Assembly: GCA_964583685.1 (NCBI GenBank)
Contig: CAZOVJ010000001.1
Location: 196,033 to 260,032 of the forward strand
Direction: 5' to 3'
Source of the DNA: an uncultured Gammaproteobacteria bacterium
GTDB lineage: Bacteria > Patescibacteriota > Microgenomatia > UBA8517
DNA length: 64,000 bases
Each line of letters opens with the position of its first letter. Position 1 is the first letter of the stretch. The notes under the pieces were generated by a model. It was not told the DNA's origin. It saw nothing but the letters and a program-made list of their open reading frames with translations, and did no database searches. The position numbers were made by a program, and so were the translations under genes. Positions 2,901 to 23,775 of this stretch are shown here, piece after piece.

Positions 2901-3659
2901 CTACCCTTTTTTCTGAGCGAGAATAAAAATGGATGGACCAAAATTGGTACAAGCCAAACATTTCTGGAACTTTCTTTCAATAAACAAAAGAAGAGAGAGT
3001 GGTATATTTCTTTTCAAGAAAGAGTTTCTGATATTGGATACTGACCTGGTTTCAATAATTTGGAAGCCATGCCTTCTCATTTTTTCTTTAATGATTCCCG
3101 GGTGATAATTTAAGAATGGAAGGGAGTTCTTTTTTCGAGCGCTTTTACTTCGTCTATCGATGGGAAAAATATCAATAGGAAAAATAAAGTTCCCTTTTAA
3201 AAAATTACGAAGAAGCGCTTTCCAATGGGTCTTGTTGGGAAATTCCAGAATAAAATACCCCTTTGGTGAAAGGAGTTTTTGAATGATTGTAAAAGCTTTG
3301 TCAGGATTTTTAATATGGTGGATAACTCTGACCATCATGATAAAGTCAAAACTAGCCCGAGGCAATTTCTTGGTCAGATTTTCTAAACCAGATTGTAAAA
3401 ATTTAATTTTCCTATTGGATTTGAATCTTTTTTTGGCCTCTTTTAAAGCTCTGGCTGAGGGGTCACATAAAACAATACTTTTTGACTTGAAGATATAGTA
3501 AGGCGTGTGCCGTCCGAATCCGCAGCCAATATCTAGGATTTTTGAAATTTTGGGAATCTTTAGGAGGAAATTTTTAATGGCGATTACTTCGCTTTCGTGT
3601 TCGTATTTTCTCTCCTGCCAATAAGAAATGTAATCGTAAGTGTCATATGCTTCGGTCAT
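2901..3659 (-). CDS. class I SAM-dependent methyltransferase
   Basis: 252 aa; motif I 'LDIGCGFGRHT' and post-I acidic residue. Confidence 0.7.
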   Translation of the reverse strand: MTEAYDTYDYISYWQERKYEHESEVIAIKNFLLKIPKISKILDIGCGFGRHTPYYIFKSKSIVLCDPSARALKEAKKRFKSNRKIKFLQSGLENLTKKLPRASFDFIMMVRVIHHIKNPDKAFTIIQKLLSPKGYFILEFPNKTHWKALLRNFLKGNFIFPIDIFPIDRRSKSARKKNSLPFLNYHPGIIKEKMRRHGFQIIETRSVSNIRNSFLKRNIPLSLLLFIERKFQKCLACTNFGPSIFILAQKKG

Positions 3660-5780: not shown

Positions 5781-6875
5781 CTAGATAAATCTCACCTGCA
5801 TGCCTTCGCGCACTGGAGTTGTTAGAGAGACCTCTTGGCCCGGATATTTAGCTCCCCTTCCCCAGATTTTTGCACTTTTTTTATTTTCGGCAAATTCGCT
5901 GCCTATTTTTTCAGCAACATTTCTTAAAGTCTGCCTTTTTTTCATAATAATTGGCTTTTCAAGACTTAATTTTTCCTGAGCTTTTACTGGATAGATACGG
6001 ATTAACAATAATCTTTTCCATATTTCCTGCCTAAGTTTTTCTAGTCCGATATTTTGTCGGGCACTGATAAAAAGGGTGCCACGGCCATGAATTGGGGGGT
6101 AACGGTGCTCTTTCGGAGCTAAATCTGTTTTATTAACTACAAAAATAGCTGGAATATAAACCCGGTTTGGACTGAGAGCATCAATTAATCTGTCGATTGT
6201 TAGCTTTTCTTTTATAGTTATTTCAGCGTTTTTGATACCCAATTCAGCGGCCACTGCTTTTATTGTTTCCTTGTCTAATCTCTGCTTGATATTTGAATGG
6301 ATTACTATTCCCCCAAGAGCTTTTTTCTCAAGACTAACTCGGGGGGGCTGGCAATTGATTCTAATACCGCTTTTCCGAAAGGCTGATTTTATCCTTTTAA
6401 AAGCTTGCTTTTTATTGATTTCGCTTATTAAGATAATTAAATCAGCTGCCCTGACAACCGAAAGAACTTCCCTCCCCTTCCCTTTTCCTTCTTCTGCTCC
6501 CTCAATAAGACCGGGAACATCGAGAATTTGAATTTTTGCATCCTTGTATTCCATCATGCCTGGGACTACGGTTAAGGTGGTAAAGGCATAAGGAGCAATC
6601 TTACTTTTGGCATTGGTCAGCTTGTTTAAAAGGGTTGATTTGCCTACCGAGGGGAAACCAACTAGGACAACGGTTGCATCACCTTGTTTTTTGATTGCAT
6701 AACTCCGCCGACTGGCGGATCCACCACCCTTTTTAGATAATCTCTCTAACTGCTTTGCTCGAAGTTTTGAAAGCTTGGCGCGGAGTTTGCCGACATGGTG
6801 CTCGGTCGCCTTGTGATAGGGTGTCTTTCTGATTTCTTCTGTAATTGTCTGAATTTGTTCCTCTATTGAGCTCAT
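5781..6875 (-). CDS. DRG-family (developmentally regulated GTP-binding protein-like) OBG-class GTPase with C-terminal TGS domain
   Basis: 364 aa; N-terminal 'KTPYHKATEHHVGKLRAKLSKLR' DRG hallmark, G1 'GFPSVGKSTLL', 'PYAFTTL', 'DVPGLIEGAEEGKGKG'; distinct from the canonical Obg at 33343-34284. Confidence 0.75.
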   Translation of the reverse strand: MSSIEEQIQTITEEIRKTPYHKATEHHVGKLRAKLSKLRAKQLERLSKKGGGSASRRSYAIKKQGDATVVLVGFPSVGKSTLLNKLTNAKSKIAPYAFTTLTVVPGMMEYKDAKIQILDVPGLIEGAEEGKGKGREVLSVVRAADLIILISEINKKQAFKRIKSAFRKSGIRINCQPPRVSLEKKALGGIVIHSNIKQRLDKETIKAVAAELGIKNAEITIKEKLTIDRLIDALSPNRVYIPAIFVVNKTDLAPKEHRYPPIHGRGTLFISARQNIGLEKLRQEIWKRLLLIRIYPVKAQEKLSLEKPIIMKKRQTLRNVAEKIGSEFAENKKSAKIWGRGAKYPGQEVSLTTPVREGMQVRFI

Positions 6876-6917
6876 TTAGTGTATAATTGTACAGGAAATA
6901 AGGGTTAAGAGACTAGA

Positions 6918-6989
6918 GCACCCGTAGCTTAATGGATAGAGCAGGTGGCTTCGGACCATCTGATGGGGGTTCGACTCCCTCCGGGTGCA
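6918..6989 (+). tRNA. tRNA-Arg(TCG)
   Basis: Acceptor GCACCCG/CGGGTGC, anticodon loop CTTCGGA, T-arm GGGGGTTCGACTCCCTC. Confidence 0.75.
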
Positions 6990-7175
6990 CAGAAATTCAG
7001 AACGTAAAATTTTGCTGGGCGCAGGTGCGGGTTGCGCCAGTAAATAATGTGGTGGAATCGGCGAAAAATCCAGCCGTTTATTTTCTTAACAAAAAAAGAA
7101 TAACGCAAAAATTTTCGGCGCTTATTTAAATTTATATCGTGAAAAGTGAAAAGCAAGTAATAAATTGCTAAAATA

Positions 7176-7811
7176 GTGAAAATAGGAATAGAAAATCCAC
7201 TCTCATTATCTCCCGAAGATTTGGGCCAGCGAGTTCTGGATAGAGACTTTTTTGATAGGAGGACAAAGGAAGTGGCCAGAGGTTTGCTTGGAAAGATTTT
7301 GGTAAGAAAAATAGGAGACAAAATTATTGCCGGGAAAATAGTGGAAGTGGAAGCATATATAGGAGAACACGACCCCGCGGCCCACGTTTCTGCAGGGCGC
7401 ACTGGAAGAACAGAAGTCCTGTACGACGAACCAGGCAATGCATACATCTTTAAAATCCGTGGGCATCATTGTCTCAATGCAGTAGCTGAAGAAGAAAATA
7501 GTCCGGGCTGCGTTCTGATAAGGGCAATTGAGCCTATATTGGGAATCAATGAAATGAAAAAGCTCAGAGGTCTCCATGTCAAAAGAAATAGAGATTTAAC
7601 CAATGGGCCCGGGAAATTGTGTCAAGCTTTTGACATAGATATGGATTTATATGGAGCCGATCTTACTAGCGGAGATTCGTTATTATTTATTGCTGAAAAT
7701 GAGGAGGGTGAAGACTTCAAGATAGAAACTACCAAAAGAATCGGAATAACAAAAGCTTCTGATTGGGAATTACGCTATACTATAAAAGGCAATAAGTTCG
7801 TTTCAAAATGA
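7176..7811 (+). CDS. mpg: DNA-3-methyladenine glycosylase (Mpg/AAG family)
   Basis: 211 aa; 'FFDRRTKEVARGLLGKIL...GKIVEVEAYIGEHDPAAH...PGNAYI' matches methylpurine-DNA glycosylase fold. Confidence 0.8.
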   Translation: MKIGIENPLSLSPEDLGQRVLDRDFFDRRTKEVARGLLGKILVRKIGDKIIAGKIVEVEAYIGEHDPAAHVSAGRTGRTEVLYDEPGNAYIFKIRGHHCLNAVAEEENSPGCVLIRAIEPILGINEMKKLRGLHVKRNRDLTNGPGKLCQAFDIDMDLYGADLTSGDSLLFIAENEEGEDFKIETTKRIGITKASDWELRYTIKGNKFVSK

Positions 7812-8353
7812 AAAAGATTATCTTTGTCACCACAAACGAAAATAAAATAAGAGAAGCATCGGAAATACTTGGTATAAAAGTAGAACCTAAAGATCTTAAA
7901 GTAGATGAGGTTCAAACACTCGACCCCTTAGAATGTGTTAAGAAAAAAGCAGAAATTGCCTATAGACTTGCCAGAATTCCAATTCTAGTTGAGGATACTA
8001 GCTTATTTTTTAGCGCCTGGGGAAAACTTCCTGGTGTATTTATTGATTACTTTATGAAATCTCTTGGTAATCAGGGAATTCTGAAATTACTTTTCGACGA
8101 AAGCAATAGGTCAGCGACAGCTCAGACAAGTTTATGTTACTTCAACGGCAAGAAAAACGTCGTCACAACCGGCAAAGTAAGGGGCAAAATTGCCGAAAAA
8201 ATGCGAGGCGATAAAGGGTTTGGTTGGGATCCAATTTTCATTCCCCGGGGCAAAAATAAGACTTTTGCGGAGATGACCAATCTTGAGAAAAATAGCTTAT
8301 CTATGAGAAAAATAGCTTTAGAAGAGCTAAAAGCTAAACTTGCTGTTCGTTAG
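7808..8353 (+). CDS. rdgB: non-canonical purine NTP pyrophosphatase (RdgB/HAM1 family)
   Basis: 181 aa; 'IIFVTTNENKIREASEILG' N-terminus and 'GFGWDPIF' motif; 4-bp overlap with mpg. Confidence 0.85.
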   Translation: MKKIIFVTTNENKIREASEILGIKVEPKDLKVDEVQTLDPLECVKKKAEIAYRLARIPILVEDTSLFFSAWGKLPGVFIDYFMKSLGNQGILKLLFDESNRSATAQTSLCYFNGKKNVVTTGKVRGKIAEKMRGDKGFGWDPIFIPRGKNKTFAEMTNLEKNSLSMRKIALEELKAKLAVR

Positions 8354-8600: not shown

Positions 8601-9303
8601 AATATTTAACCACCTCCTCTAATACAATTTCTCTGGCCTCTTCATAAACTTCTGGTATTTCTTTCTCCCTTGCGTCAATGACCCTGATTCTGTCCGGGAA
8701 CAGCTGAATTAATCTGTGGTATTGTAGGGCTACTTTCACCTGAGTATCCATAACTTCGTATTTGGAAAGCACCTTAACATCTTTGGCTCTTTCCATCGCC
8801 AGTGCAGGGTCATTATCAATAAGCAAGGTCAAATTTGGAAAAGATAGTAATCCCCGATCAACCAGATTTTGGTTTAGCCCTGTCAAGAATTTCAAGGTAG
8901 GCTCCTCACCACCAAAGTATTTGGCCAATCTTACACTTTGATAAGCAAACCAACTGTCAAGAAAACGATCGGTAATAACAACTACTCCCTTTTGCAGTTT
9001 TGGCAAAATGAGCTTTTCATAATTATCTAATCGAGCTGTCAGGAGAAGGAAGGCCTCGGATATGTGAGTCAAATTCTCACCTCTTTCAAAATGTTCCTGA
9101 AATCTGTCCCAAGGGGAAAGTCCGTAAGGCGGGTCGCGAGTTAAAGCGACATCAAAACCTCTATCAAGAAGGTCCTTTCTTAACCAACGAGCAACAGGAG
9201 TTTTCCCTGTGAAGTCTATACCCTCTAGGCTTGTAAACATCCCAAATTTTCTCTCTGTGTCCGGCATTTCAGCTAATATATACTTAGGCACCCTATAAGT
9301 CAA
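8593..9303 (-). CDS. tmk: thymidylate kinase-like (dTMP kinase)
   Basis: 236 aa; P-loop 'FTSLEGIDFTGKT' and 'LTRDP' dTMP-kinase motifs. Confidence 0.6.
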   Translation of the reverse strand: MTYRVPKYILAEMPDTERKFGMFTSLEGIDFTGKTPVARWLRKDLLDRGFDVALTRDPPYGLSPWDRFQEHFERGENLTHISEAFLLLTARLDNYEKLILPKLQKGVVVITDRFLDSWFAYQSVRLAKYFGGEEPTLKFLTGLNQNLVDRGLLSFPNLTLLIDNDPALAMERAKDVKVLSKYEVMDTQVKVALQYHRLIQLFPDRIRVIDAREKEIPEVYEEAREIVLEEVVKYYD

Positions 9304-9590
9304 ATTAAGCCTGCAGTTTCTTTTTCTATTATATTTTAGTAAAATATACTTACCGTTAGGTAAAAAGTTTGCAAAGCAAACTTATCTGCTCGGCAAAGCC
9401 GAGTCAATTGCACGCGAAGATAATTAGCGGAGACTTCGCTCAGCGGGACCGGAGCTATACAATATGGTGGCTGCCGCTATTCAGCCGCCATACCTTTGAA
9501 GTAAGTTCGAATTTCGCAATATAACGTGCACTTTATTTTTTCTCTTGAATATTTTTTTCTTTATATGGTATTTTGTTATAAGGTCTTCTT
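9304..9590. ncRNA. candidate structured RNA / leader in GC-enriched tmk-pyrG divergent intergenic region (unclassified)
   Basis: 287 nt non-coding, much more GC-rich than flanks; perfect hairpin CTCGGC-AAA-GCCGAG and 10-bp stem ATGGTGGCTG...CAGCCGCCAT; no family identified. Confidence 0.25.
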
Positions 9591-11263: not shown

Positions 11264-11351
11264 GCCGAGGTGCTGGAATGGTAGACAGGACAGACTTAAA
11301 ATCTGTTGTCGCAATTGCGACGTGAGGGTTCGACTCCCTCCCTCGGCACCA
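11264..11351 (+). tRNA. tRNA-Leu(TAA)
   Basis: Acceptor GCCGAGG/CCTCGGC, anticodon stem ACAGA/TCTGT loop CTTAAAA, long variable arm, encoded CCA. Confidence 0.8.
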
Positions 11352-11427
11352 CGGGGTGTAGCTCAGTTGGCAGAGTGCGCGCTTTGGGAGCGTGAGGTCC
11401 CCGGTTCGAGTCCGGGCACCCCGACCA
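11352..11427 (+). tRNA. tRNA-Pro(TGG)
   Basis: Acceptor CGGGGTG/CACCCCG, anticodon loop TTTGGGA, T-arm CCCCGGTTCGAGTCCGGG, encoded CCA; abuts the paralogue operon (5 bp away). Confidence 0.8.
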
Positions 11428-11431
11428 AATT

Positions 11432-12322
11432 TCAAGAGCCAATTTCTACTGCAATACGAAATCCTACTTCTGGGTACGATTGGTTGGCATATTTCAAAAG
11501 GACGTGGGCAGCACCACCGTCGTATAAATTGCCAACCATGAAACGTAGAGAACTACGGACCTCATGGCGACATTCAGTATTTGTCCATTCGTAGGTGTTA
11601 GTTTTTCCCCAACCAAAACGATTGGCAAGTAGATTCCACGGCAAAATATCCAACAAGTGAACATCACCTTTTACCAATCCTACATCAGAAAGAAATTTCT
11701 GTTTGGCTTCATCAATTGCTGCCTTAATGTCGTTCCAAGAAACATTGAATCTGTCATCAATTCCCAGTCTTTTCCCAAAATTAGTTTCTTGGTATTTCTC
11801 TCCATGTGATGGCTTTTCTAATGTCTCAACCGCAAGCCACTGACCAGGCCGCCTAGGAAAGTCAGCCCAGTCCCCTTGTACCTTTTCCCAGTAGAACATT
11901 TCCAAGTTTCTGTAAATCTGGTATTTATTCTTTTCACTCTCTGACAAACTCTCAAACCGCTTCCAGTTAGGGTATTTTGCAGTAAGCCTTCTTAGATATT
12001 GCGTTAGGTTTTCTCTTCCTAATTGGTAAGGGTCAAGGTCTAAAGGAGGTAAGAAAACAAGAGTAAAGCCTTCCTCTTCTAGTTTCTGCTTTACTTCTTG
12101 GGTAATTTCAGTTGGAAGAGGAGGAATGGTAAAATTTACACCCAGTACCCGCTTCCAAGCTTCTTGTTCTACCATAATTAAGTCTGCCTCAAACTCTTTT
12201 AATTCTGGCTCTCTTGTCTCTCTTTCTGCTAAAAGCTCTTCTAACTTCCTTGAAGCAGGAATCTCTCTTTTCCCGAAAGGATCAAGTCTTGCTACTTCAT
12301 CTGGTGGTATTTTTTCAGCCAT
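11432..12322 (-). CDS. paralogue A1 of a 4-member unknown-function family (C-terminal GFR[IV]AVEIGS)
   Basis: 296 aa; shares N-terminal 'EK..PD.VA.LDPF...IPASR.LEELLA', central 'RLG..DRFNVSW' and 'WNLLANR.GWGKTN..EWTNTE' blocks with ORFs at 12335, 13031, 15664. Confidence 0.7.
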   Translation of the reverse strand: MAEKIPPDEVARLDPFGKREIPASRKLEELLAERETREPELKEFEADLIMVEQEAWKRVLGVNFTIPPLPTEITQEVKQKLEEEGFTLVFLPPLDLDPYQLGRENLTQYLRRLTAKYPNWKRFESLSESEKNKYQIYRNLEMFYWEKVQGDWADFPRRPGQWLAVETLEKPSHGEKYQETNFGKRLGIDDRFNVSWNDIKAAIDEAKQKFLSDVGLVKGDVHLLDILPWNLLANRFGWGKTNTYEWTNTECRHEVRSSLRFMVGNLYDGGAAHVLLKYANQSYPEVGFRIAVEIGS

Positions 12323-13871: not shown

Positions 13872-15674
13872 TTATAATTCTTTAGTAAATTCCCTCAAGA
13901 GCTCAGCTAAGATTTCTGGTAATTGATTTACTTTGTCACAAACTTTGCTCTCGGGTGAATAGGTGTTTTCAATTGCTCGAGCGTGACGAGTGATTCCAAC
14001 ACCAACAACAGTAACACCCATCTGCCGCAACTTTACTAACTCTTCTTGAACCCGATCGGGATTGCTGCTTATGCCATCAGAAAAAACAATGACTGCCTTT
14101 TTAAGTTCACCAGCAGCCAATCTCCTTTGTTTCTCTTGATCGGTATCTTCGCGGATTGCTTCTAAAGATTCATAGTCCCATGTTGCTAAACCTGGAGCGC
14201 TAGCTAGATTCTTAAAGACTTCAATTCGTGTTATTTCCTTAAGTTCAGAAGATAAAGGTTTTAACTCAATCTCAAAATTTCCAAATCCTCTGACTTCACT
14301 TTTAACCCCAAGTTCTACCATCTCTTCCCGATGTGTCTCAGCAAGTTGATGGAAATCTTTAAGTGCTTCAAGGAAAAGAATCACACAGTGACGCTCTTCG
14401 ACAAGTTTTTCTCTTGGCATTTCCATTGAACAGGAAAGATCACAAACTAGAGTAACCTCAAATCCACCTGGAGCAACTACTTCAACCGGCCTTTTTTGGT
14501 AATCCAGCCAAACAGGAGAATCGGAAATTCCCACATCGGCATCTAATTTCGCTTGAGATAAAAGTCCGGGGTCGATAACCGCTCCTTCTCTCCGGCGCGC
14601 CCTGAGCCGTCTTTTATACTCAATCCTCCGACTAATAACCTTTTCAAAAACTTTCCTTAAATATTCTATATAAGGCTTAATGGTTATATACTCTCCATAA
14701 TATCCTTGAATGTCTTCCCAGGACACTCCGTGTTCAAGCTCGTAGGCACGGCGGTCAAGCTCTTCTGGTCCGGCCCCGCGAGCAACTTGATCTTCAAATT
14801 CTCTAATTAACTCTTCTTGGAGCTCACCCGCCATAGGATGGGGCAAGCGATTTTCTTCCTTTTCATACTCTTGACGAAAGCCTTCTTCATTAGGAGCTAA
14901 TTTAAGCTTTCCTTTACTTTTCTCTACCTCTCCTTCGCCTTCTCCTCTAACTTCGACTTCCTCCCCTTCCTTTTCTTGTTTTTTCTCTCCTTGTTTTTTC
15001 CTTTCTTTAAGGTCCTCTTGGAACAGCTCTTCAAAAATTGGTTCAATGAAAAGCCTAATTGCTTTAAGCCGAATGGCAGGCTCAACCCCGGGCTGAGCAA
15101 TCAATTCAAGCAGGTTCTTTCCTTTGATATCCTTCAACCCTTCTATCTCTTGCCTTACTTGCGTATCAATTCTAACTTTTTCTTCTGGCAACATTGCCTC
15201 GCGAAGAATAGCGTGAGCGAACTGAAGATGACGGGGGTGTTGGGTGTAATCGGTTTCTGGGAAAAGACGCTGGCGATATAAATTCCTGATGGTCTCACGG
15301 TGAACGGGCGCTCTATTACCTAGAGTTCTATTAATTAAAGTGTCCTGAAGGCAATTGTGTAAGATTTGATAGCGGAATCCTAAGATCTCTCTTCGATCAA
15401 ATTCCTTTCGGTAAAGTGAGGGAGAGCGGCGGAATTCTCGTAATTCCTCAAGTTCATGAAGGGTGGCGGACATTGCTTGAGAACGACTAAATCCTTTATC
15501 AATAAAAAACTGAGGATCATAAAAAATTGTTCCGGTTTCGAGATCGAATCCCCACTGATTACCTGGCACAATTTGTAAACCAGTAACTTGAGCATAACCG
15601 GCCAGTAACGATTGTTCTTGTGCAAAAAAGTCTTCAGCTTCCTCTCTTTTTCGTCCTTTTTGTTCAGTTGACAT
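13872..15674 (-). CDS. VWA (von Willebrand factor A, MIDAS) domain protein with unknown N-terminal domain and acidic/basic low-complexity linker
   Basis: 600 aa; C-terminal 'FEVTLVCDLSCSME' (DxSxS MIDAS) and 'VIVFSDGISSNPD' VWA motifs; 11-bp overlap with upstream paralogue A4. Confidence 0.75.
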   Translation of the reverse strand: MSTEQKGRKREEAEDFFAQEQSLLAGYAQVTGLQIVPGNQWGFDLETGTIFYDPQFFIDKGFSRSQAMSATLHELEELREFRRSPSLYRKEFDRREILGFRYQILHNCLQDTLINRTLGNRAPVHRETIRNLYRQRLFPETDYTQHPRHLQFAHAILREAMLPEEKVRIDTQVRQEIEGLKDIKGKNLLELIAQPGVEPAIRLKAIRLFIEPIFEELFQEDLKERKKQGEKKQEKEGEEVEVRGEGEGEVEKSKGKLKLAPNEEGFRQEYEKEENRLPHPMAGELQEELIREFEDQVARGAGPEELDRRAYELEHGVSWEDIQGYYGEYITIKPYIEYLRKVFEKVISRRIEYKRRLRARRREGAVIDPGLLSQAKLDADVGISDSPVWLDYQKRPVEVVAPGGFEVTLVCDLSCSMEMPREKLVEERHCVILFLEALKDFHQLAETHREEMVELGVKSEVRGFGNFEIELKPLSSELKEITRIEVFKNLASAPGLATWDYESLEAIREDTDQEKQRRLAAGELKKAVIVFSDGISSNPDRVQEELVKLRQMGVTVVGVGITRHARAIENTYSPESKVCDKVNQLPEILAELLREFTKEL

Positions 15675-16554
15675 GTTTAAAAACTACTGCAACACGAAAT
15701 CCGATATTGAAATTGAAAGAGGAGTAATCAGATCTTTCCCAAATAACGTGGGCCGCACCACCGTACTTAAAATTACCAACAAAGAGATGGCAGTTGACGT
15801 CGAGCGGTCGATATTCGGTATTGGTCCATTCGGAAGAATTAGTCTTCCCCCACCCTTCACGATTTGCCAACAAATTCCATTCAAGTGCTTCCAGAAGTCT
15901 AATATCTCCATGGCCGGAAAGACCTATTTCAGAAAGAATACTTTGCTTCGTATTCCATATTGCCCTGGTTACTTCATCCCAGGAAAGGTTGAATCTGTCA
16001 GAAAATCCTAGTCTGTCTGTCAATGGTGAACGGGGAAATTCCCTTCCCCATGCTGGTTTTTCCAGTGTCTCAACAGCCAGCCATTGACCGGGAAGCTCGG
16101 GGAAATCTATATTCCCTACTTGCTTCCAAAACCAATGATGTAAATTTCTAACAACAGTGTGGTTTGATTTTTCTCTCTCATTTAGAGATTCATATGGTTT
16201 CCAGTTAGGGTACTTTTCAGCAAGTTCTTTCAAGAAAACCACAACTCCTTTTTCCCGAAGTGCTAAAGCATCTAAGTCAAGTGCTGGTATGAACCTCAAT
16301 TCAAAACCAAATCTTTCCAAATTTCTCATCACCTCTTGAATTACAAATGATGGTAAAGGTAGAACTTCAACTTCACTTCCCAAAACCTTTAGCCATTCAT
16401 TTCTCTCGAAGGTAATGATTTCTGACATCTGGGCTTCTGGTTCTCCTGTTCCTCTTCCTGCTGCTAAAAGCTCTTCTAATTCTCTTGAAGCAGGAATCCC
16501 TTTCCCAAAAGGATCAAGAAGTGCTACTTTATTTGGTGGTATTTTTTCAGTCAC
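15664..16554 (-). CDS. paralogue A4 (divergent C-terminus ...GFRVAVVFKHVN)
   Basis: 296 aa; start overlaps stop of AAA+ gene by 4 bp (ATGA), end overlaps VWA gene start. Confidence 0.65.
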   Translation of the reverse strand: MTEKIPPNKVALLDPFGKGIPASRELEELLAAGRGTGEPEAQMSEIITFERNEWLKVLGSEVEVLPLPSFVIQEVMRNLERFGFELRFIPALDLDALALREKGVVVFLKELAEKYPNWKPYESLNEREKSNHTVVRNLHHWFWKQVGNIDFPELPGQWLAVETLEKPAWGREFPRSPLTDRLGFSDRFNLSWDEVTRAIWNTKQSILSEIGLSGHGDIRLLEALEWNLLANREGWGKTNSSEWTNTEYRPLDVNCHLFVGNFKYGGAAHVIWERSDYSSFNFNIGFRVAVVFKHVN

Positions 16555-16556
16555 AG

Positions 16557-18305
16557 TTAGACTGTTTCCCCTCGATAGGCTAATAGTTTTTCTTCAGTTA
16601 GGCCAGGAATTCCAAGATCCTTGGCTTTTTTTTTCTTGAAAAACCCATGGAGACAGAAGATTTTAACTAAATTAGACTGGTCTTGGCGTACAGTTTGAGA
16701 TTGAATAAACTCAGAAAGAATAAAATCTTCAAGCGGACGAGTAAAGTCTTCTGCTTTCCAGGCTTTAATAATATCTAATAGATCACCAATTGAAAGAGTG
16801 GCTTTCTCCAAACTGGCCCCAATCCCTCGACTGGCATCGGCCCCTTCTCCCATAAAGTCAGTTTTCTCGCCAGTAAAGACATCTTGGACAAGTTTAGCCG
16901 CTTGACAGAAATTTTTTAAATCTTCTAAGTCCGTTTGACGATTACCTATTCTTAAAGCTCCCTGGCGATCAATTAGTCCCGCCAGTAAAATATCATGAGT
17001 CTCATTGAGAGGTAAATATGTGACTTCTGTTTGCCAATAACGGCGTAAAAAGGCAGGGTCAAGTTTTTCACGGAAATATTTGCGGGAGCGGATATTACCA
17101 GTTGCCATGACAATAAAGCCTTTAGGGATTAGAATTTCCTCATCGCCATTTTCTTGAATGGTAATCGTGTCTCCGGGACGACGAGTCAGAAGATCTTGAA
17201 TTCTACCAATAATCGAATGAGGAACAAGATCTATCTCATCAATCAGAAGAGGTATTCCTTCTCGTAAGGCTTTGGTAGCTGGTCCGTCTTCAAAATGACT
17301 CCCATTAGGTCCCAGTTGAGTTTTGCCAAGAAGATCATAATGGGTTGCATCCTCAGAACCTGAGAAGAGCTTAGGATCTGCACCAAAAAGCTTACGGGAA
17401 ACATAGCGCGCAGTTTCGGTCTTGCCTGTTCCTGTGTGTCCCCAAAGTAGGATTGGCTTACCTTGACGGACTCGGGCAGCAAGTTTGTTTACCAGCTCTT
17501 CGATTTGAGGTGTTTCCACAAATCCCTTTTTAAGTTGCCTTCTAAATTTAGTTAGCTCTCGTCGTTTTTCTTCGACTAGGAGTTCAGGGTTTTTTTCGAG
17601 AGTAATTATTCGTGCTTTTGCGGCAGCGATGCGTTTATTGTTTCGAGATAAAAACTCCTCATCAGGCTGAGAAAATCCTTTCTCCTGCCGCCTTAAAATT
17701 AATTCAGCATTTGCCTGACTTAGGCTTTCTACCCTTTTTCGCAAATACTCAATTTCTCTCGCTTTTTGAATAATCCTCACTTTCTTGGCAAATTTTTCCC
17801 GATAACGTTCAACTACCTGAGGGTAGGCAACAAGAGTCTTAATCTGAGTTTGTACTATGGTTAGTCGATCGCTTAATTCATGGACTAGCTCTTCTGGCTT
17901 CTCTCTTATCGCCTGGACAGCTCCTCCCTCAGCAATGGCTGCCAATTCTTCTTCTAAAGAACGTTTCTCCCCTTTTCTTTGTAATCGTTCCTCCTCTCTT
18001 CGTTCTGCCTCTAGATTTGCAATGGCTGCCAATTCTTCTTGTTCAATGGCTGCCAATTCTTTTTCTAAAGTAGGTTTCTCATTTTTTTCTTGTAACCCTT
18101 CCTGCTCTCTTCGTTCTACCACTAAATCTGCTTCTTGATTAAGGAGGGAGTGTAGATGAACCTGTTCCAAGGCTAAATTTGCCAGTTGGTCACAAAACTC
18201 GGCCACCTGTTCATTAGATAGCTTTTCTCTGCTAGGCACAATCTCGGAATGCTCACGGAGAGTTATATCGGCTATATTTAGAGACACAAGCTTTTTTTCA
18301 ATCAT
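16557..18305 (-). CDS. MoxR-like (AAA_5) AAA+ ATPase with ~290-aa N-terminal coiled-coil/repeat extension
   Basis: 582 aa; Walker A 'LLWGHTGTGKTE', Walker B 'LLIDEIDL', sensor 'VMATGN', Arg-finger region 'LDPAFLRR'; N-terminal heptad-rich region with internal 29-aa repeats. Confidence 0.8.
   Translation of the reverse strand: MIEKKLVSLNIADITLREHSEIVPSREKLSNEQVAEFCDQLANLALEQVHLHSLLNQEADLVVERREQEGLQEKNEKPTLEKELAAIEQEELAAIANLEAERREEERLQRKGEKRSLEEELAAIAEGGAVQAIREKPEELVHELSDRLTIVQTQIKTLVAYPQVVERYREKFAKKVRIIQKAREIEYLRKRVESLSQANAELILRRQEKGFSQPDEEFLSRNNKRIAAAKARIITLEKNPELLVEEKRRELTKFRRQLKKGFVETPQIEELVNKLAARVRQGKPILLWGHTGTGKTETARYVSRKLFGADPKLFSGSEDATHYDLLGKTQLGPNGSHFEDGPATKALREGIPLLIDEIDLVPHSIIGRIQDLLTRRPGDTITIQENGDEEILIPKGFIVMATGNIRSRKYFREKLDPAFLRRYWQTEVTYLPLNETHDILLAGLIDRQGALRIGNRQTDLEDLKNFCQAAKLVQDVFTGEKTDFMGEGADASRGIGASLEKATLSIGDLLDIIKAWKAEDFTRPLEDFILSEFIQSQTVRQDQSNLVKIFCLHGFFKKKKAKDLGIPGLTEEKLLAYRGETV
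17931..18131. repeat. intragenic ~87-bp tandem repeat (about 2.3 copies) within the AAA+ ATPase coiled-coil region
   Basis: 'GCAATGGCTGCCAATTCTTCTT...' recurs at 17931, 18019 and 18046; encodes repeated 'LE[KE]ELAAI...ERREEERLQRKGEKRS' units. Confidence 0.7.
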
Positions 18306-18447
18306 GATGGCTATTTTAGCTGAAAAAGAAACAAAAACGCAATTTTTTCCCGATGAGTTGTCACAATTGTTGTTAAAATTAACAATTTTTGATAAAATTG
18401 GTTTGAACTATTTTATGGATGGCCGATCAACCCAAGATTTGTTTTTA

Positions 18448-18627
18448 GTGGGTGTAGTACAATGGTAGTACACCTTCCTTCCCCGCCTGCAAGTGCTATG
18501 CGGGATTAGTTGAGTGGTATAACAGCTCCCTTCCAAGGAGCAAACACGGGTTCGATTCCCGTATCCCGCTCAGCTAGCATTGCGGGCAGGCAAGGAGGAT
18601 ATGGCAGTTCGATTCTGCTCACCCGCT
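18448..18627 (+). other. split/interrupted tRNA-Gly(TCC)-like gene: 5' half (18448-18482) and 3' half (18592-18627) separated by a 109-bp insert that contains an intact tRNA-Gly
   Basis: Outer halves pair as a full cloverleaf: acceptor GTGGGTG/CACCCGC, D-arm GTAC-AATGGTA-GTAC, anticodon stem CCTTC/GGAGG with loop CTTCC|AA, T-arm GGCAG-TTCGATT-CTGCT; break is between positions 36 and 37. Confidence 0.5.
18500..18573 (+). tRNA. tRNA-Gly(TCC) (inner, intact)
   Basis: Acceptor GCGGGAT/ATCCCGC, anticodon stem GCTCC/GGAGC loop CTTCCAA, T-arm CGGGTTCGATTCCCG. Confidence 0.8.
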
Positions 18628-18631
18628 CACC

Positions 18632-18895
18632 ATGACCAGCGCCGACGACATTCAAAAACAACATGACGTTTTAATTCCGGAGAAAGATGAAAGAACTCAG
18701 GAAGAGATAGGTGAAGAATCAGCTCTTGGTTCATCACCGGTTCCAACCTCAGATGATGATACTGGAGAAGTACTTGAAGGTGTAATTGGCAATGAACCGG
18801 AACCTGGAAAGCCGTTTACTATTGCAAAGGAAGTTGAAAAGGACGAAAAGGCACGGAGAGATGTGCCGAAAGGCTTGGACGAAGAGGGCAAGTAG
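18632..18895 (+). CDS. hypothetical acidic protein
   Basis: 87 aa ORF rich in D/E; no domain recognised. Confidence 0.35.
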   Translation: MTSADDIQKQHDVLIPEKDERTQEEIGEESALGSSPVPTSDDDTGEVLEGVIGNEPEPGKPFTIAKEVEKDEKARRDVPKGLDEEGK

Positions 18896-23113: not shown

Positions 23114-23155
23114 AGAGGTTCGATTCCCTCCGCCCCTGCAATTTAGCCTCAAGAA
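23114..23155 (+). other. tRNA 3'-end-like remnant (T-arm GAGGTTCGATTCCCTCC + acceptor-like GCCCCTGCA) fused to the 3' half of an R repeat
   Basis: Canonical GGTTCGATTCC T-loop with no matching 5' tRNA half upstream; continues into '...CCCCTGCAATTTAGCCTCAAGAAG' shared with R repeats. Confidence 0.5.
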
Positions 23156-23775
23156 GCCCCAAGAGTATATTCTTTATATGGTTTATGGTTTTTCCACAAC
23201 CATATTGAAGCGACTGGTAATTTTTTGTTAGTCAATTTATCTTTTTCTATCACCTTCCAGGCTTTTTCAATATTTGCTGGACTAACATCATTATAAACAA
23301 GAGTGAAGTGTAATACATCCCTTTTTTCTTTATGTATTGGCGAAAACTCCCCCAGCCTCTCTTTAATTCTCAAAACAAGATTGTCGGCTTCATTGTTTTG
23401 GGCAAATGCAACAAAAATAGTAAAATCCTCTCCATAATCCCCCAACCTGGTTGAATTTAACACAAACGGCTTTGTAGCAGATGCAATTTCTTCCATTCGC
23501 TGTAGCACTTTCATTTCATCTCTCTCTTCTATCATTATTTTTTGTCCAAGTGCTATGTGTGGAAAGATCTCTGTTTCAACAGTCTCTCCGTCTCCTGGTA
23601 TAAAAAGTTTTCGTGGGTTCATTTGCTCTCTCACTCTCAAAACACGGTACACCACTTTATCTGTTTCTTTTCCATAAACCTCCTTAGCAAGCAGAGAGAG
23701 TTGCTCTTTTAGAGAATCTTCCATTTCACCAGAAAGGTGAATCTCTACACGATATTCAATTTCTTTTCCAGACAT
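23149..23775 (-). CDS. 2H phosphoesterase superfamily protein (LigT/2'-5' RNA ligase-like)
   Basis: 208 aa; two H-x-[TS]-x motifs ('HIAL', 'HFTL') spaced as in LigT. Confidence 0.55.
   Translation of the reverse strand: MSGKEIEYRVEIHLSGEMEDSLKEQLSLLAKEVYGKETDKVVYRVLRVREQMNPRKLFIPGDGETVETEIFPHIALGQKIMIEERDEMKVLQRMEEIASATKPFVLNSTRLGDYGEDFTIFVAFAQNNEADNLVLRIKERLGEFSPIHKEKRDVLHFTLVYNDVSPANIEKAWKVIEKDKLTNKKLPVASIWLWKNHKPYKEYTLGAS

Follow-up and report, generated by a model that had tools for sequence, protein, structure and literature searches.

The window analysed here is a stretch of 64,000 nucleotides of the bacterial contig CAZOVJ010000001.1, and all coordinates given below are positions within it. 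At 18448-18627 on the forward strand it holds two tRNA-Gly(UCC) genes, one inside the other: a complete gene, the inner tRNA or cargo, interrupts the anticodon loop of a second gene, the outer tRNA. The outer 5' part (18448-18481, nt 1-35 of the tRNA) consists of the acceptor strand GTGGGTG, a D-arm GTAC/AATGGTA/GTAC, the anticodon stem strand CCTTC and the loop bases CTTC. It is followed by a left arm (18482-18491, CCCGCCTGCA), a 5' spacer that forms the leader of the inner tRNA (18492-18499, AGTGCTAT), the inner tRNA itself (18500-18570), a 3' spacer or trailer (18571-18580, CAGCTAGCAT) and a right arm (18581-18590, TGCGGGCAGG). The outer 3' part (18591-18627, nt 36-73) then supplies CAA, the stem strand GGAGG, a variable loop ATAT, the T-arm GGCAG/TTCGATT/CTGCT, the acceptor strand CACCCGC and the discriminator T. 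All of these features lie on the plus strand, and from arm to arm the cassette spans 18482-18590, or 109 bp. The two arms are complementary and pair at 9 of 10 positions; position 10/11' covaries between them, being A-T here and C-G in most related loci. In addition, GTGCTA of the 5' spacer can pair with TAGCAT of the 3' spacer.

A sequence-only reading of this DNA had described a complete tRNA-Gly(TCC) nested within a tRNA-Gly(TCC) split in its anticodon loop, and this description was borne out by ARAGORN, which calls both the inner gene (tRNA-Gly(tcc), 18500-18571) and the joined outer gene, and for the inner gene by Rfam, whose tRNA model RF00005 covers 18500-18570 at 71 bits (E = 1e-15, threshold 29). 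The inner tRNA has the canonical bacterial glycine identity elements G1-C72, C2-G71, G3-C70 and U73 and is presumed to be the working decoder. When 18448-18482 and 18592-18627 are joined, ARAGORN calls a 72-nt tRNA-Gly(tcc) which folds as a cloverleaf with stems of 7/4/5/5, all 21 of 21 stem pairs and a 7-nt anticodon loop; the conserved tertiary nucleotides U8, A14, G18G19, U33, A37, the T-loop TTCGATT and U73 are all present. Its sole oddity is U2.G71, C2-G71 being usual in bacterial tRNA-Gly. With introns allowed, ARAGORN reports from the native sequence the inner gene alone, which scores higher than the outer one; once the inner gene is scrambled, the intron-model search that had been suggested as a check recovers the outer gene at 18448-18628 with a 108-nt intron. 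The insert length of 109 bp claimed for the break stands, and its placement between nt 36 and 37 holds to within one base: the insert both starts and ends with C, so that a break at 35/36 or at 36/37 gives an identical joined product. Homologous short inserts favour the 35/36 register, and C36 is position 18482 in the register first proposed. This ambiguity had been overlooked, as had the complementary, GC-rich ends of the insert. At the break the outer exons end in ...GTACACCTTCCTTCC on the 5' side and begin with AAGGAGGATATGG... on the 3' side; the predicted joined form across the break is GTAGTACACCTTCCTTCCAAGGAGGATATGGCAG, and the unspliced junctions read CCTTCCTTCCCCGCCTGC and GCGGGCAGGCAAGGAGG.

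The folding energy of the 180-nt unit is -77.3 kcal/mol (z = -4.9). The inner and outer tRNAs are 69% identical and differ in all four stems. A 701-bp segment containing the locus is 100% identical in contigs of two different JGI metagenomes, and the locus is therefore not an assembly artefact. The source samples are JGI 3300008517 and 3300028837 and SRR3095939. Two overlapping sigma-70-like promoter matches are found at 18358-18398 (+), about 50 nt 5' of the outer tRNA (TTGTCA-17-AACAAT, and TTGTTA-17-TAAAAT with an extended -10 TG; both are matches to the consensus only). No other promoter-like signal was seen ahead of the nested unit, and none between the outer 5' end and the inner gene.

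The window locus belongs to a conserved, sporadically distributed family of palindrome-bounded tRNA cassettes seated in cognate anticodon loops. Scans of two collections gave about 50 independent loci, almost all from Patescibacteria, in which a tRNA lies within a tRNA of the same anticodon; the hosts are bacteria, as DnaE and, in related loci, bacterial rRNA indicate. A pattern requiring a tRNA-Gly(UCC) T-loop and then a second T-loop too soon for a tandem gene matched the window once (0 expected) and 39 loci among 185,579 species-representative genomes. Seven of the 39 are nested (L022, L030, L032, L034, L038, L039 and L051; loci are referred to by number throughout), three of them (L032, L038 and L039) with the architecture and insert ends of the window and the other four (L030, L051, L034 and L022) as variants, and most of the remaining matches are a tRNA followed by a 3' fragment, or chance. 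A metagenome scan, in which the search pattern itself demanded the arm motif, returned 61 loci (53 unique), about 43 of them true nested genes and about 10 chance matches. By tRNA type the pairs are Trp(CCA) 16, Gly(UCC) 13, Gly(CCC) 5, Gly(GCC) 3, Ala(UGC) 3 and Met-like 1. After a single excision 25 of the 43 unique outers are called as tRNA, with the anticodon of the inner gene in all but L071 and L072; seven more are called after a second clean excision, six with the matching anticodon and L112 with a different one. The exceptions each concern one anticodon base, outer versus inner: UCA versus CCA in L071, where the outer would read UGA and UGG, CAC versus CAU in L072, where CAC sits in a Met-like body, and UCC versus CCC in L112. 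An excision test applied to 131 tRNAs found a same-anticodon spanning tRNA only in members of the nested family and in one new Pro-in-Pro case.

The cassette has the form CCCGCCTGCC-spacer-tRNA-spacer-GGCGGGCAGG. Insertion is always at ..C^CAA.. of the anticodon loop, which corresponds to 35^36 for the Gly and Ala tRNAs and to 34^35 for those of Trp, and the arm CCCGCCTGC[C/A] bounds all 43 unique cassette loci. The window agrees with this definition in its arms CCCGCCTGC[C/A] ... [G/T]GCGGGCAGG, its complete tRNA, its C^CAA site, and the shared anticodon and orientation of its two genes. It aligns with a subfamily CCGCCTGCAAGNGCTAT...GCATTGCGGGCAGGC that also includes L052, L054, L072, L083 and L105; spacers of the window type, AAGNGCTAT...GCATTGCGGGCAGG, carry Gly-UCC, Trp, Gly-GCC, Met and Gly-CCC cargo, and a second spacer subfamily, CCTTGCC...CAAGTTCGGCGGGCAGG, is likewise shared between loci. 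In 17 of 21 cases an outer is closest to the inner of a different locus, and the L078 outer matches the L071 inner at 94%, with damage in its acceptor stem. Judged by sequence relatedness, outers and inners are drawn from one pool. Nesting can also be reciprocal: type A lies in type B in the window and B in A in L032, and of two Trp types P lies in Q in L088, the converse holding in L107. Of the window genes, the outer resembles the L038 inner (83%), and the inner resembles L022 and the outer of L032. Nested genes occupy native tRNA positions, namely that of the rRNA spacer Ala (16S-23S) in L084 and a place in the Leu-Leu-Val-Phe-Gly cluster in L081 and L083.

Several members of the family have peculiarities of their own. 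On the reverse strand of L064, at about 2950-3290, a tRNA-Pro(UGG) lies in a Pro-like outer next to the nested tRNA-Gly(UCC) of the same contig; the arms of the Pro nest differ (CCCCCACACC / GGTGTGGGGG), and the anticodon loop of its outer is replaced by a continuous 10-bp helix. L066 equals L038 except that the 3' strands of the outer T-stem and acceptor are replaced by those of the inner (CCGCTCACCCGC), and is either an assembly chimera or the result of gene conversion between inner and outer 3' ends. In L084 (1-7983) the nested tRNA-Ala(UGC) lies in the 16S-23S spacer of an rRNA operon whose 23S match covers model positions 1-1971 over 2507 nt, so that insertions make up about 500 nt; a match to a group I intron (54 bits, 6844-7003) overlaps the 3' end of the 16S match (6951-7983, minus strand).

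The arms CCCGCCTGCC and GGCGGGCAGG are the two halves of a 20-nt palindrome, CCTGCCTGCCGGCAGGCAGG (hereafter PAL), if the last exon C is counted in the element. Paired, they give a helix of 10 bp in which a C.A mismatch is conserved and one pair is U.G; both exon junctions lie exactly at its base. Past the arms the helix gains no more than shuffled partners do, 0.47 extra pairs as against 0.57. PAL also occurs without cargo. Complete 20-nt copies are present in outer T-loops at TTC^GATT (L058, L070 and L111), in the D-loop (L052 and L145), in the 3' strand of an anticodon stem (L053), in the variable loop of a tRNA-Met on a phage contig, where it makes an extra variable arm (L138), within another PAL (L022 and L084, with a PAL-in-PAL hairpin at L084 2890-2925), and in the loops of hairpins that are not tRNAs (L077 and L102). 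In L012 a frame of the window type lies reversed within truncated, dead 5' fragments of tRNA-Val and tRNA-Gly(GCC). The perfect 20-mer was found in 35 IMG/VR contigs (L114-L148; GC 0.38-0.68, many of them high-GC) at up to 6 copies per contig, mostly outside tRNAs and often flanked by short direct or inverted repeats; examples are L134 2648, 9001, 10422 and 10690, L138 2284 and L145 515. High-GC DNA has long open frames in every phase, and restoration of long reading frames on deletion of the 20 nt from these contigs is for this reason no guide to removal of PAL at the RNA level. In the window the arm motif occurs once, at the nested tRNA, and is otherwise at chance level, and arm 7-mers that lie away from tRNAs are near background over 440 kb of related loci. 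PAL is thus a DNA-level insertion element favouring hairpin loops: it turns up without cargo and in either orientation, and its sites include dead tRNA fragments and phage-like contigs. It was absent from the published accounts that we found by full-text literature search, which included the palindrome string.

Outer T-loops also hold three other families of structured inserts: CTGCGTCC...AGGA, of 36-70 nt (L052 and L087, at TTCGA^); TCCGGTCATTCGACCGGACGCCCCGTCGGATGACGGGGCG, of 40 nt with two hairpins (L102 and L105, at TTCG^ATT); and an AT-rich TAC...ATGT of 31-34 nt (L057 and L101). The L052 outer has four inserts and still keeps 20 of 21 stem pairs. L012 also holds partial copies of its tRNA genes (6717-7510, 9295-9425, 11776-11930 and 18499-18713): the genes for Val, Gly-GCC (two copies), Leu-CAG, Leu-UAA and Arg-UCG are preceded, 30-60 nt upstream, by their own first 11-26 nt, some of these copies being split by the reversed palindrome frame. 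Both of its Leu genes have the same 56-nt insert after the duplicated 11 nt, and its tRNA-His is flanked by 5' (nt 1-11) and 3' (nt 57-75) copies of itself.

The reading we favour, to which we give a probability of roughly 0.55, is that a mobile palindrome-bounded cassette disrupts a resident tRNA gene and complements it with its cargo, the unit being co-transcribed, the inner tRNA freed by RNase P and RNase Z, and the outer halves left unjoined although their fold is conserved. In the window, DNA of the cassette would have entered a resident tRNA-Gly(UCC) between nt 35 and 36 without duplicating the target. Such an insertion would destroy the resident gene as a decoder and would be viable only through cargo with the same anticodon, a strategy of "disrupt and complement". 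This would account for the same-anticodon rule, and also for the finding of cargo-less palindromes only where a decoder is no longer needed. A single promoter 5' of the outer 5' half probably transcribes the whole unit; co-transcription is suggested since nothing resembling a promoter separates the outer 5' end from the inner gene. In the transcript the inner acceptor stem may stack on the palindrome helix and the outer halves to make one long rod, tipped by the inner tRNA. RNase P, together with RNase Z or exonucleases for 3' processing, would free the inner tRNA, and the two outer halves would not be ligated into a decoding tRNA. The tRNA-like fold of the outer would nevertheless be kept; candidate reasons are that it helps the co-transcript to be processed or to stay stable, or that the element spreads by recombining with intact alleles. 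Movement of the cassette would depend on an enzyme acting in trans.

Relaxed constraint on the outers speaks for this reading. Of the outers that could be parsed, about half show one or more defects in the stems or the T-loop. The T-loop is broken in three of them (TGCGAAT in L054, TCCGATT in L097 and GCTCAGC in L079), the outer 5' half is lost in L105 and L109, anticodon stems retain 2 of 5 pairs in L102 and 3 of 5 in L058, and the Pro outer of L064 is without any anticodon loop. Cargo-less PAL, too, seems not to be tolerated in working tRNAs: inspection by eye gave about 8 copies in the loops of about 43 outers and none in or beside about 108 inner and standalone tRNAs. The reading draws further support from the spread of PAL as a DNA-level element, from the single pool of outers and inners, from the native positions of nested genes and from promoter-like sites that lie only 5' of the outer gene.

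A number of results weigh against the favoured reading, among them that the outer fold is clearly under purifying selection. Across 23 outers 96.5% of stem cells pair, versus 62% in shuffles, and all 21 pairs covary; no more than two clean excisions make 32 of the 43 unique outers recognisable as tRNA. Where two loci agree in outer type, inner type and frame, their outers show compensatory changes, six with no disruptive change between L032 and L038, and five and none between L079 and L083. Between L058 and L070 the outer exons differ at 2 of 73 positions, the spacers and arms at about 16% and the four-fold sites of the neighbouring gyrA at 36%. Between L038 and L059 they differ at 7 of 72, none disruptive and two making up one compensatory pair, while the spacers differ at about 35-40% plus indels and the four-fold sites of neighbouring genes are saturated. 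Overall the outers change about 5-fold more slowly than the spacers and about 7-fold faster than the inner tRNA. In a streamlined genome a dead gene would be expected to decay or disappear, and one has to assume that the outer fold has some function or is renewed very often; we read the selection as a sign that the tRNA-like frame plays some role or is constantly replenished from intact alleles. Nor was an enzyme for mobility apparent: no transposase or recombinase was found at the nested loci, no protein family is consistently linked to them, and all-against-all clustering of 578 open reading frames (ORFs) from nested loci gave no family present in most loci. The route by which a native tRNA comes into the cargo position and the origin of the reciprocal nestings are left without explanation by a mobile cassette. 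Two limits bear on the observations as well: PAL was detected only indirectly in standalone tRNAs, and both search patterns required co-orientation of the two genes and a canonical inner T-loop.

The conservation of the outer exons, with its compensatory changes, speaks at the same time for the main rival reading, which we regard as possible but unlikely, namely that the insert is a new protein-dependent bacterial tRNA intron, a third class beside groups I and II, so that one transcript gives rise to two tRNA-Gly(UCC) isodecoders. Cutting would be by an endonuclease at the base of the 10-bp helix, or by RNase P and RNase Z at the cargo with the tails trimmed, and joining by an RNA ligase, for instance RtcB, for which the substrates in bacteria are still unclear; outers with several inserts, up to four in L052, would then be the bacterial counterpart of the multi-intron tRNAs of Thermoproteales. 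In keeping with splicing, when the insert is taken out exactly the anticodon loop is again a canonical one of 7 nt, and exact removal of the extra short inserts gives back the T-loop TTCGATT, the D-arm and the anticodon stem (L053, L057, L058, L067, L070, L075 and L101). Both junctions lie at the base of one helix, outer and inner anticodons agree in nearly all loci, a weak LigT-like 2H phosphoesterase is encoded 4.5 kb away (23149-23775), and introns are unusually common in Patescibacteria (PMC13011429). A spliceable intron, however, has no need of a replacement tRNA, and many outers have defects that would be fatal to a decoder, as the three T-loops, the anticodon stems and the L064 Pro outer show. 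Cargo-less PAL is limited to outers, dead fragments and variable loops, none having been seen in the roughly 108 working tRNAs, and the frame occurs in both orientations. The junctions have no bulge-helix-bulge geometry and a stagger unfit for RNase III, Rfam gave no ribozyme or intron match, and no splicing enzyme was identified. Of the explanations offered by the sequence-only reading, an anticodon-loop intervening sequence that carries a tRNA survives as anatomy, now as that of a conserved family; on balance we consider that it is probably not removed from the RNA.

Less probable still is an old, vertically inherited self-duplication in situ, once per tRNA type and without mobility, after which the paralogues diverged and the GC-rich palindrome arose in place as a processing stem. 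The same-anticodon rule would then be automatic; the L022 outer is identical to its inner and has AT-rich inverted-repeat spacers with no PAL arms, and in L072 and L098 inner and outer differ mainly by compensatory pairs. It is difficult to reconcile with identical 10-nt arms and spacer subfamilies around different cargo (Trp, Gly-UCC, Gly-GCC, Gly-CCC and Met) in distant lineages, with the sporadic occurrence of nesting (7 nested Gly(UCC) loci among 185,579 species representatives), with the reciprocal nestings, or with PAL dispersed elsewhere. Comparison with a sister locus, which had been proposed as a check, also goes against it: the closest syntenic relative, L012, is un-nested. The two further explanations on offer did not hold up. 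The anticodon loop is a classical attB location, and DNA has clearly been inserted there; the suggested scar of integration and excision by a tyrosine or serine integrase is correct in spirit as regards DNA insertion at that loop, but we think it very improbable. What integrase events leave, as L014, L020, L048 and L050 show, is a complete tRNA whose 3' part is directly repeated, and not two halves that complement each other on either side of a foreign complete tRNA. With 109 bp the insert is short, its terminal repeats are inverted and no direct repeat is present, no integrase lies within about 10 kb, and no repeat of the inner tRNA of k>=10 occurs in the flanks of +/-300 nt. Tandem duplication with deletion, or an assembly chimera, could be supposed from two tRNA-Gly(UCC) genes within 180 bp and from the related contig L066, which looks chimeric between inner and outer 3' ends. 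It is barely credible for genes that are 69% identical with different stems, whose outer halves are complementary across the insert and whose insert ends are a conserved palindrome common to about 50 unrelated loci, at a locus found identical in two independent metagenome assemblies. Loci homologous to it, about 50, moreover come from many projects.

Known classes of insert were compared directly with the junctions. At E <= 10 Rfam matched the inner tRNA alone over 18350-18750, with no ribozyme and no Intron_gpI. A group I intron, which has a P3-P8 catalytic core, some 180 nt or more and a 5'-splice-site U pairing in P1, was rejected on the missing Intron_gpI match, the 109-nt insert and a 5' junction base that is C, not U. 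A group II intron requires a six-domain ribozyme of several hundred nt, and the insert has 109 nt, no ORF and no Rfam match. With a bulge-helix-bulge intron threaded by hand at 35/36 and 36/37, the 4-bp helix that it requires contains C.A and U.C mismatches; what the junctions show is a 4x3-nt internal loop abutting the 10-bp helix. Cuts of the RNase III type (2-nt 3' overhang) and of the Cas6 type were likewise threaded by hand and none fits both junctions. As for a miniature inverted-repeat transposable element (MITE), terminal inverted repeats are present (10-nt arms, 9/10 paired, kept in 43 loci); an ordinary MITE was rejected on the absence of a target-site duplication (...CTTC / CCCGCC...GCAGG / CAA...) and on a motif that is single-copy in the window.

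The locus shares features with several established systems. Group I introns of 184-894 bp are known from tRNA anticodon loops, including 35/36 introns within tRNA-Asn and tRNA-Asp of Patescibacteria (PMC13011429). Like them, the cassette is a bacterial anticodon-loop insert in the same phylum, at nominal position 35/36 and of sporadic occurrence, whose host gene is missed by standard finders; unlike them, it is shorter, without a group I core or 5' U, and is essentially a tRNA between palindrome arms. Some archaeal bulge-helix-bulge introns carry a functional RNA (a C/D box sRNA in tRNA-Trp), Thermoproteales have multi-intron tRNAs and Nanoarchaeum has split tRNAs. The resemblance lies in short, protein-dependent tRNA-loop inserts, sometimes several per gene, that are able to house an RNA, and in exon halves held by a helix of the insert, but the present host is bacterial, there is no 3-nt bulge/4-bp helix/3-nt bulge, the cargo is a full cognate tRNA and splicing here is only conjectured. 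Small non-autonomous palindromic insertion elements include repetitive extragenic palindromes and the mosaic elements built from them (REP/BIME), MITEs, Rickettsia palindromic elements, the GC clusters of yeast mitochondria and the GC-rich PstI palindromes that flank Neurospora mitochondrial tRNA genes. PAL resembles these as a short GC-rich palindrome in an AT-rich genome that is dispersed, nested, found in both orientations and placed inside RNA genes, and like other small palindromic elements it must be mobilised in trans because it has no coding capacity. It differs in targeting tRNA and hairpin loops without target duplication, in its single window copy and in a centre split by an anticodon-matching tRNA. 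Integrative elements that target tRNA genes are kilobases long, encode an integrase, restore the gene by fusion and leave direct repeats; the cassette shares with them insertion into an essential tRNA gene while bringing what restores function, but it brings an entire second gene and leaves the first one split.

The surroundings are those of a bacterial chromosome, with DnaE, CTP synthase, GatA, iPGM and PPDK encoded in the window and a GC fraction of about 0.40; the best named relatives of its PyrG are Patescibacteria ("Candidatus Chisholmbacteria" and "Patescibacteria group"). ARAGORN finds 13 tRNAs in the window. On the opposite strand, immediately 5' of the nested tRNA, a four-gene operon (13872-18305, minus strand) encodes an AAA_5 (MoxR-like) ATPase, two proteins without a Pfam match and a VWA-domain protein; AAA_5 homologues of 59-68% identity lie in other contexts, on short contigs without tRNA, and the block 13872-18305 may be a variable insertion. 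On the 3' side there follow an 87-aa acidic ORF, a tRNA-His with its own promoter-like site and a 156-aa ORF that is an ORFan. A 208-aa ORF at 23149-23775 (minus strand), 4.5 kb from the nested tRNA, has a weak match to 2'-5' RNA ligase/LigT 2H phosphoesterases (27.5 bits against a cut-off of 27) and does not recur near other nested loci. A domain scan of neighbouring ORFs showed no integrase within about 10 kb and no transposase, and the 20 ORFs scanned in the 64-kb window include no EndA-type splicing endonuclease or tRNA ligase. Recurrent neighbours of the family, a four-helix-bundle protein 5' of three Trp loci and RNase Y and a YmdB-like protein near some nested loci, look like ordinary synteny.

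An exact 29-mer of the outer 5' half had no match in the 185,579 species genomes, so that there is no split or unsplit copy of the window outer tRNA for comparison. Of the loci found through PyrG synteny, L008, L010 and L011 have no nearby tRNA-Gly. L012 is syntenic, but its un-nested tRNA-Gly(UCC) is 63% identical to both window genes and does not tell which of them is native. The Leu-Leu-Val-Phe-Gly cluster that contains the nested gene in L081 and L083 has an ordinary tRNA-Gly(GCC) in the window. CCA ends do not mark the native gene either, N73-CA occurring alike in standalone and inner genes; N73-CA, and not N73-CCA or unrelated sequence, follows about 45% (48/108) of the tRNA genes in the window and L032-L112. 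Elsewhere in the window (11264-11427) tRNA-Leu(UAA) and tRNA-Pro(UGG) abut without a spacer according to ARAGORN (11351/11352) and are separated by a 3-nt gap according to Rfam.

Full-text literature searches yielded no description of a tRNA within a tRNA of the same anticodon. If the insert were an intron, the rule that bacterial introns are self-splicing only would be overturned and bacterial RNA ligases would gain a natural substrate. On either account, standard tRNA finders report the inner gene only, so that a whole layer of genes is missing from Patescibacteria tRNA inventories, and both the 20-nt palindrome and the other insert families specific to loops, of which there are at least three, are uncharted mobile or structural elements. 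If the cassette disrupts and complements, as we favour, it would represent a new selfish strategy, in which a tiny element strikes the most conserved spot of an essential single-copy gene and supplies a working copy. Its imprecise loss would be lethal and its target universal, and it would open a way for organisms with minimal tRNA sets to have their tRNA genes replaced horizontally.

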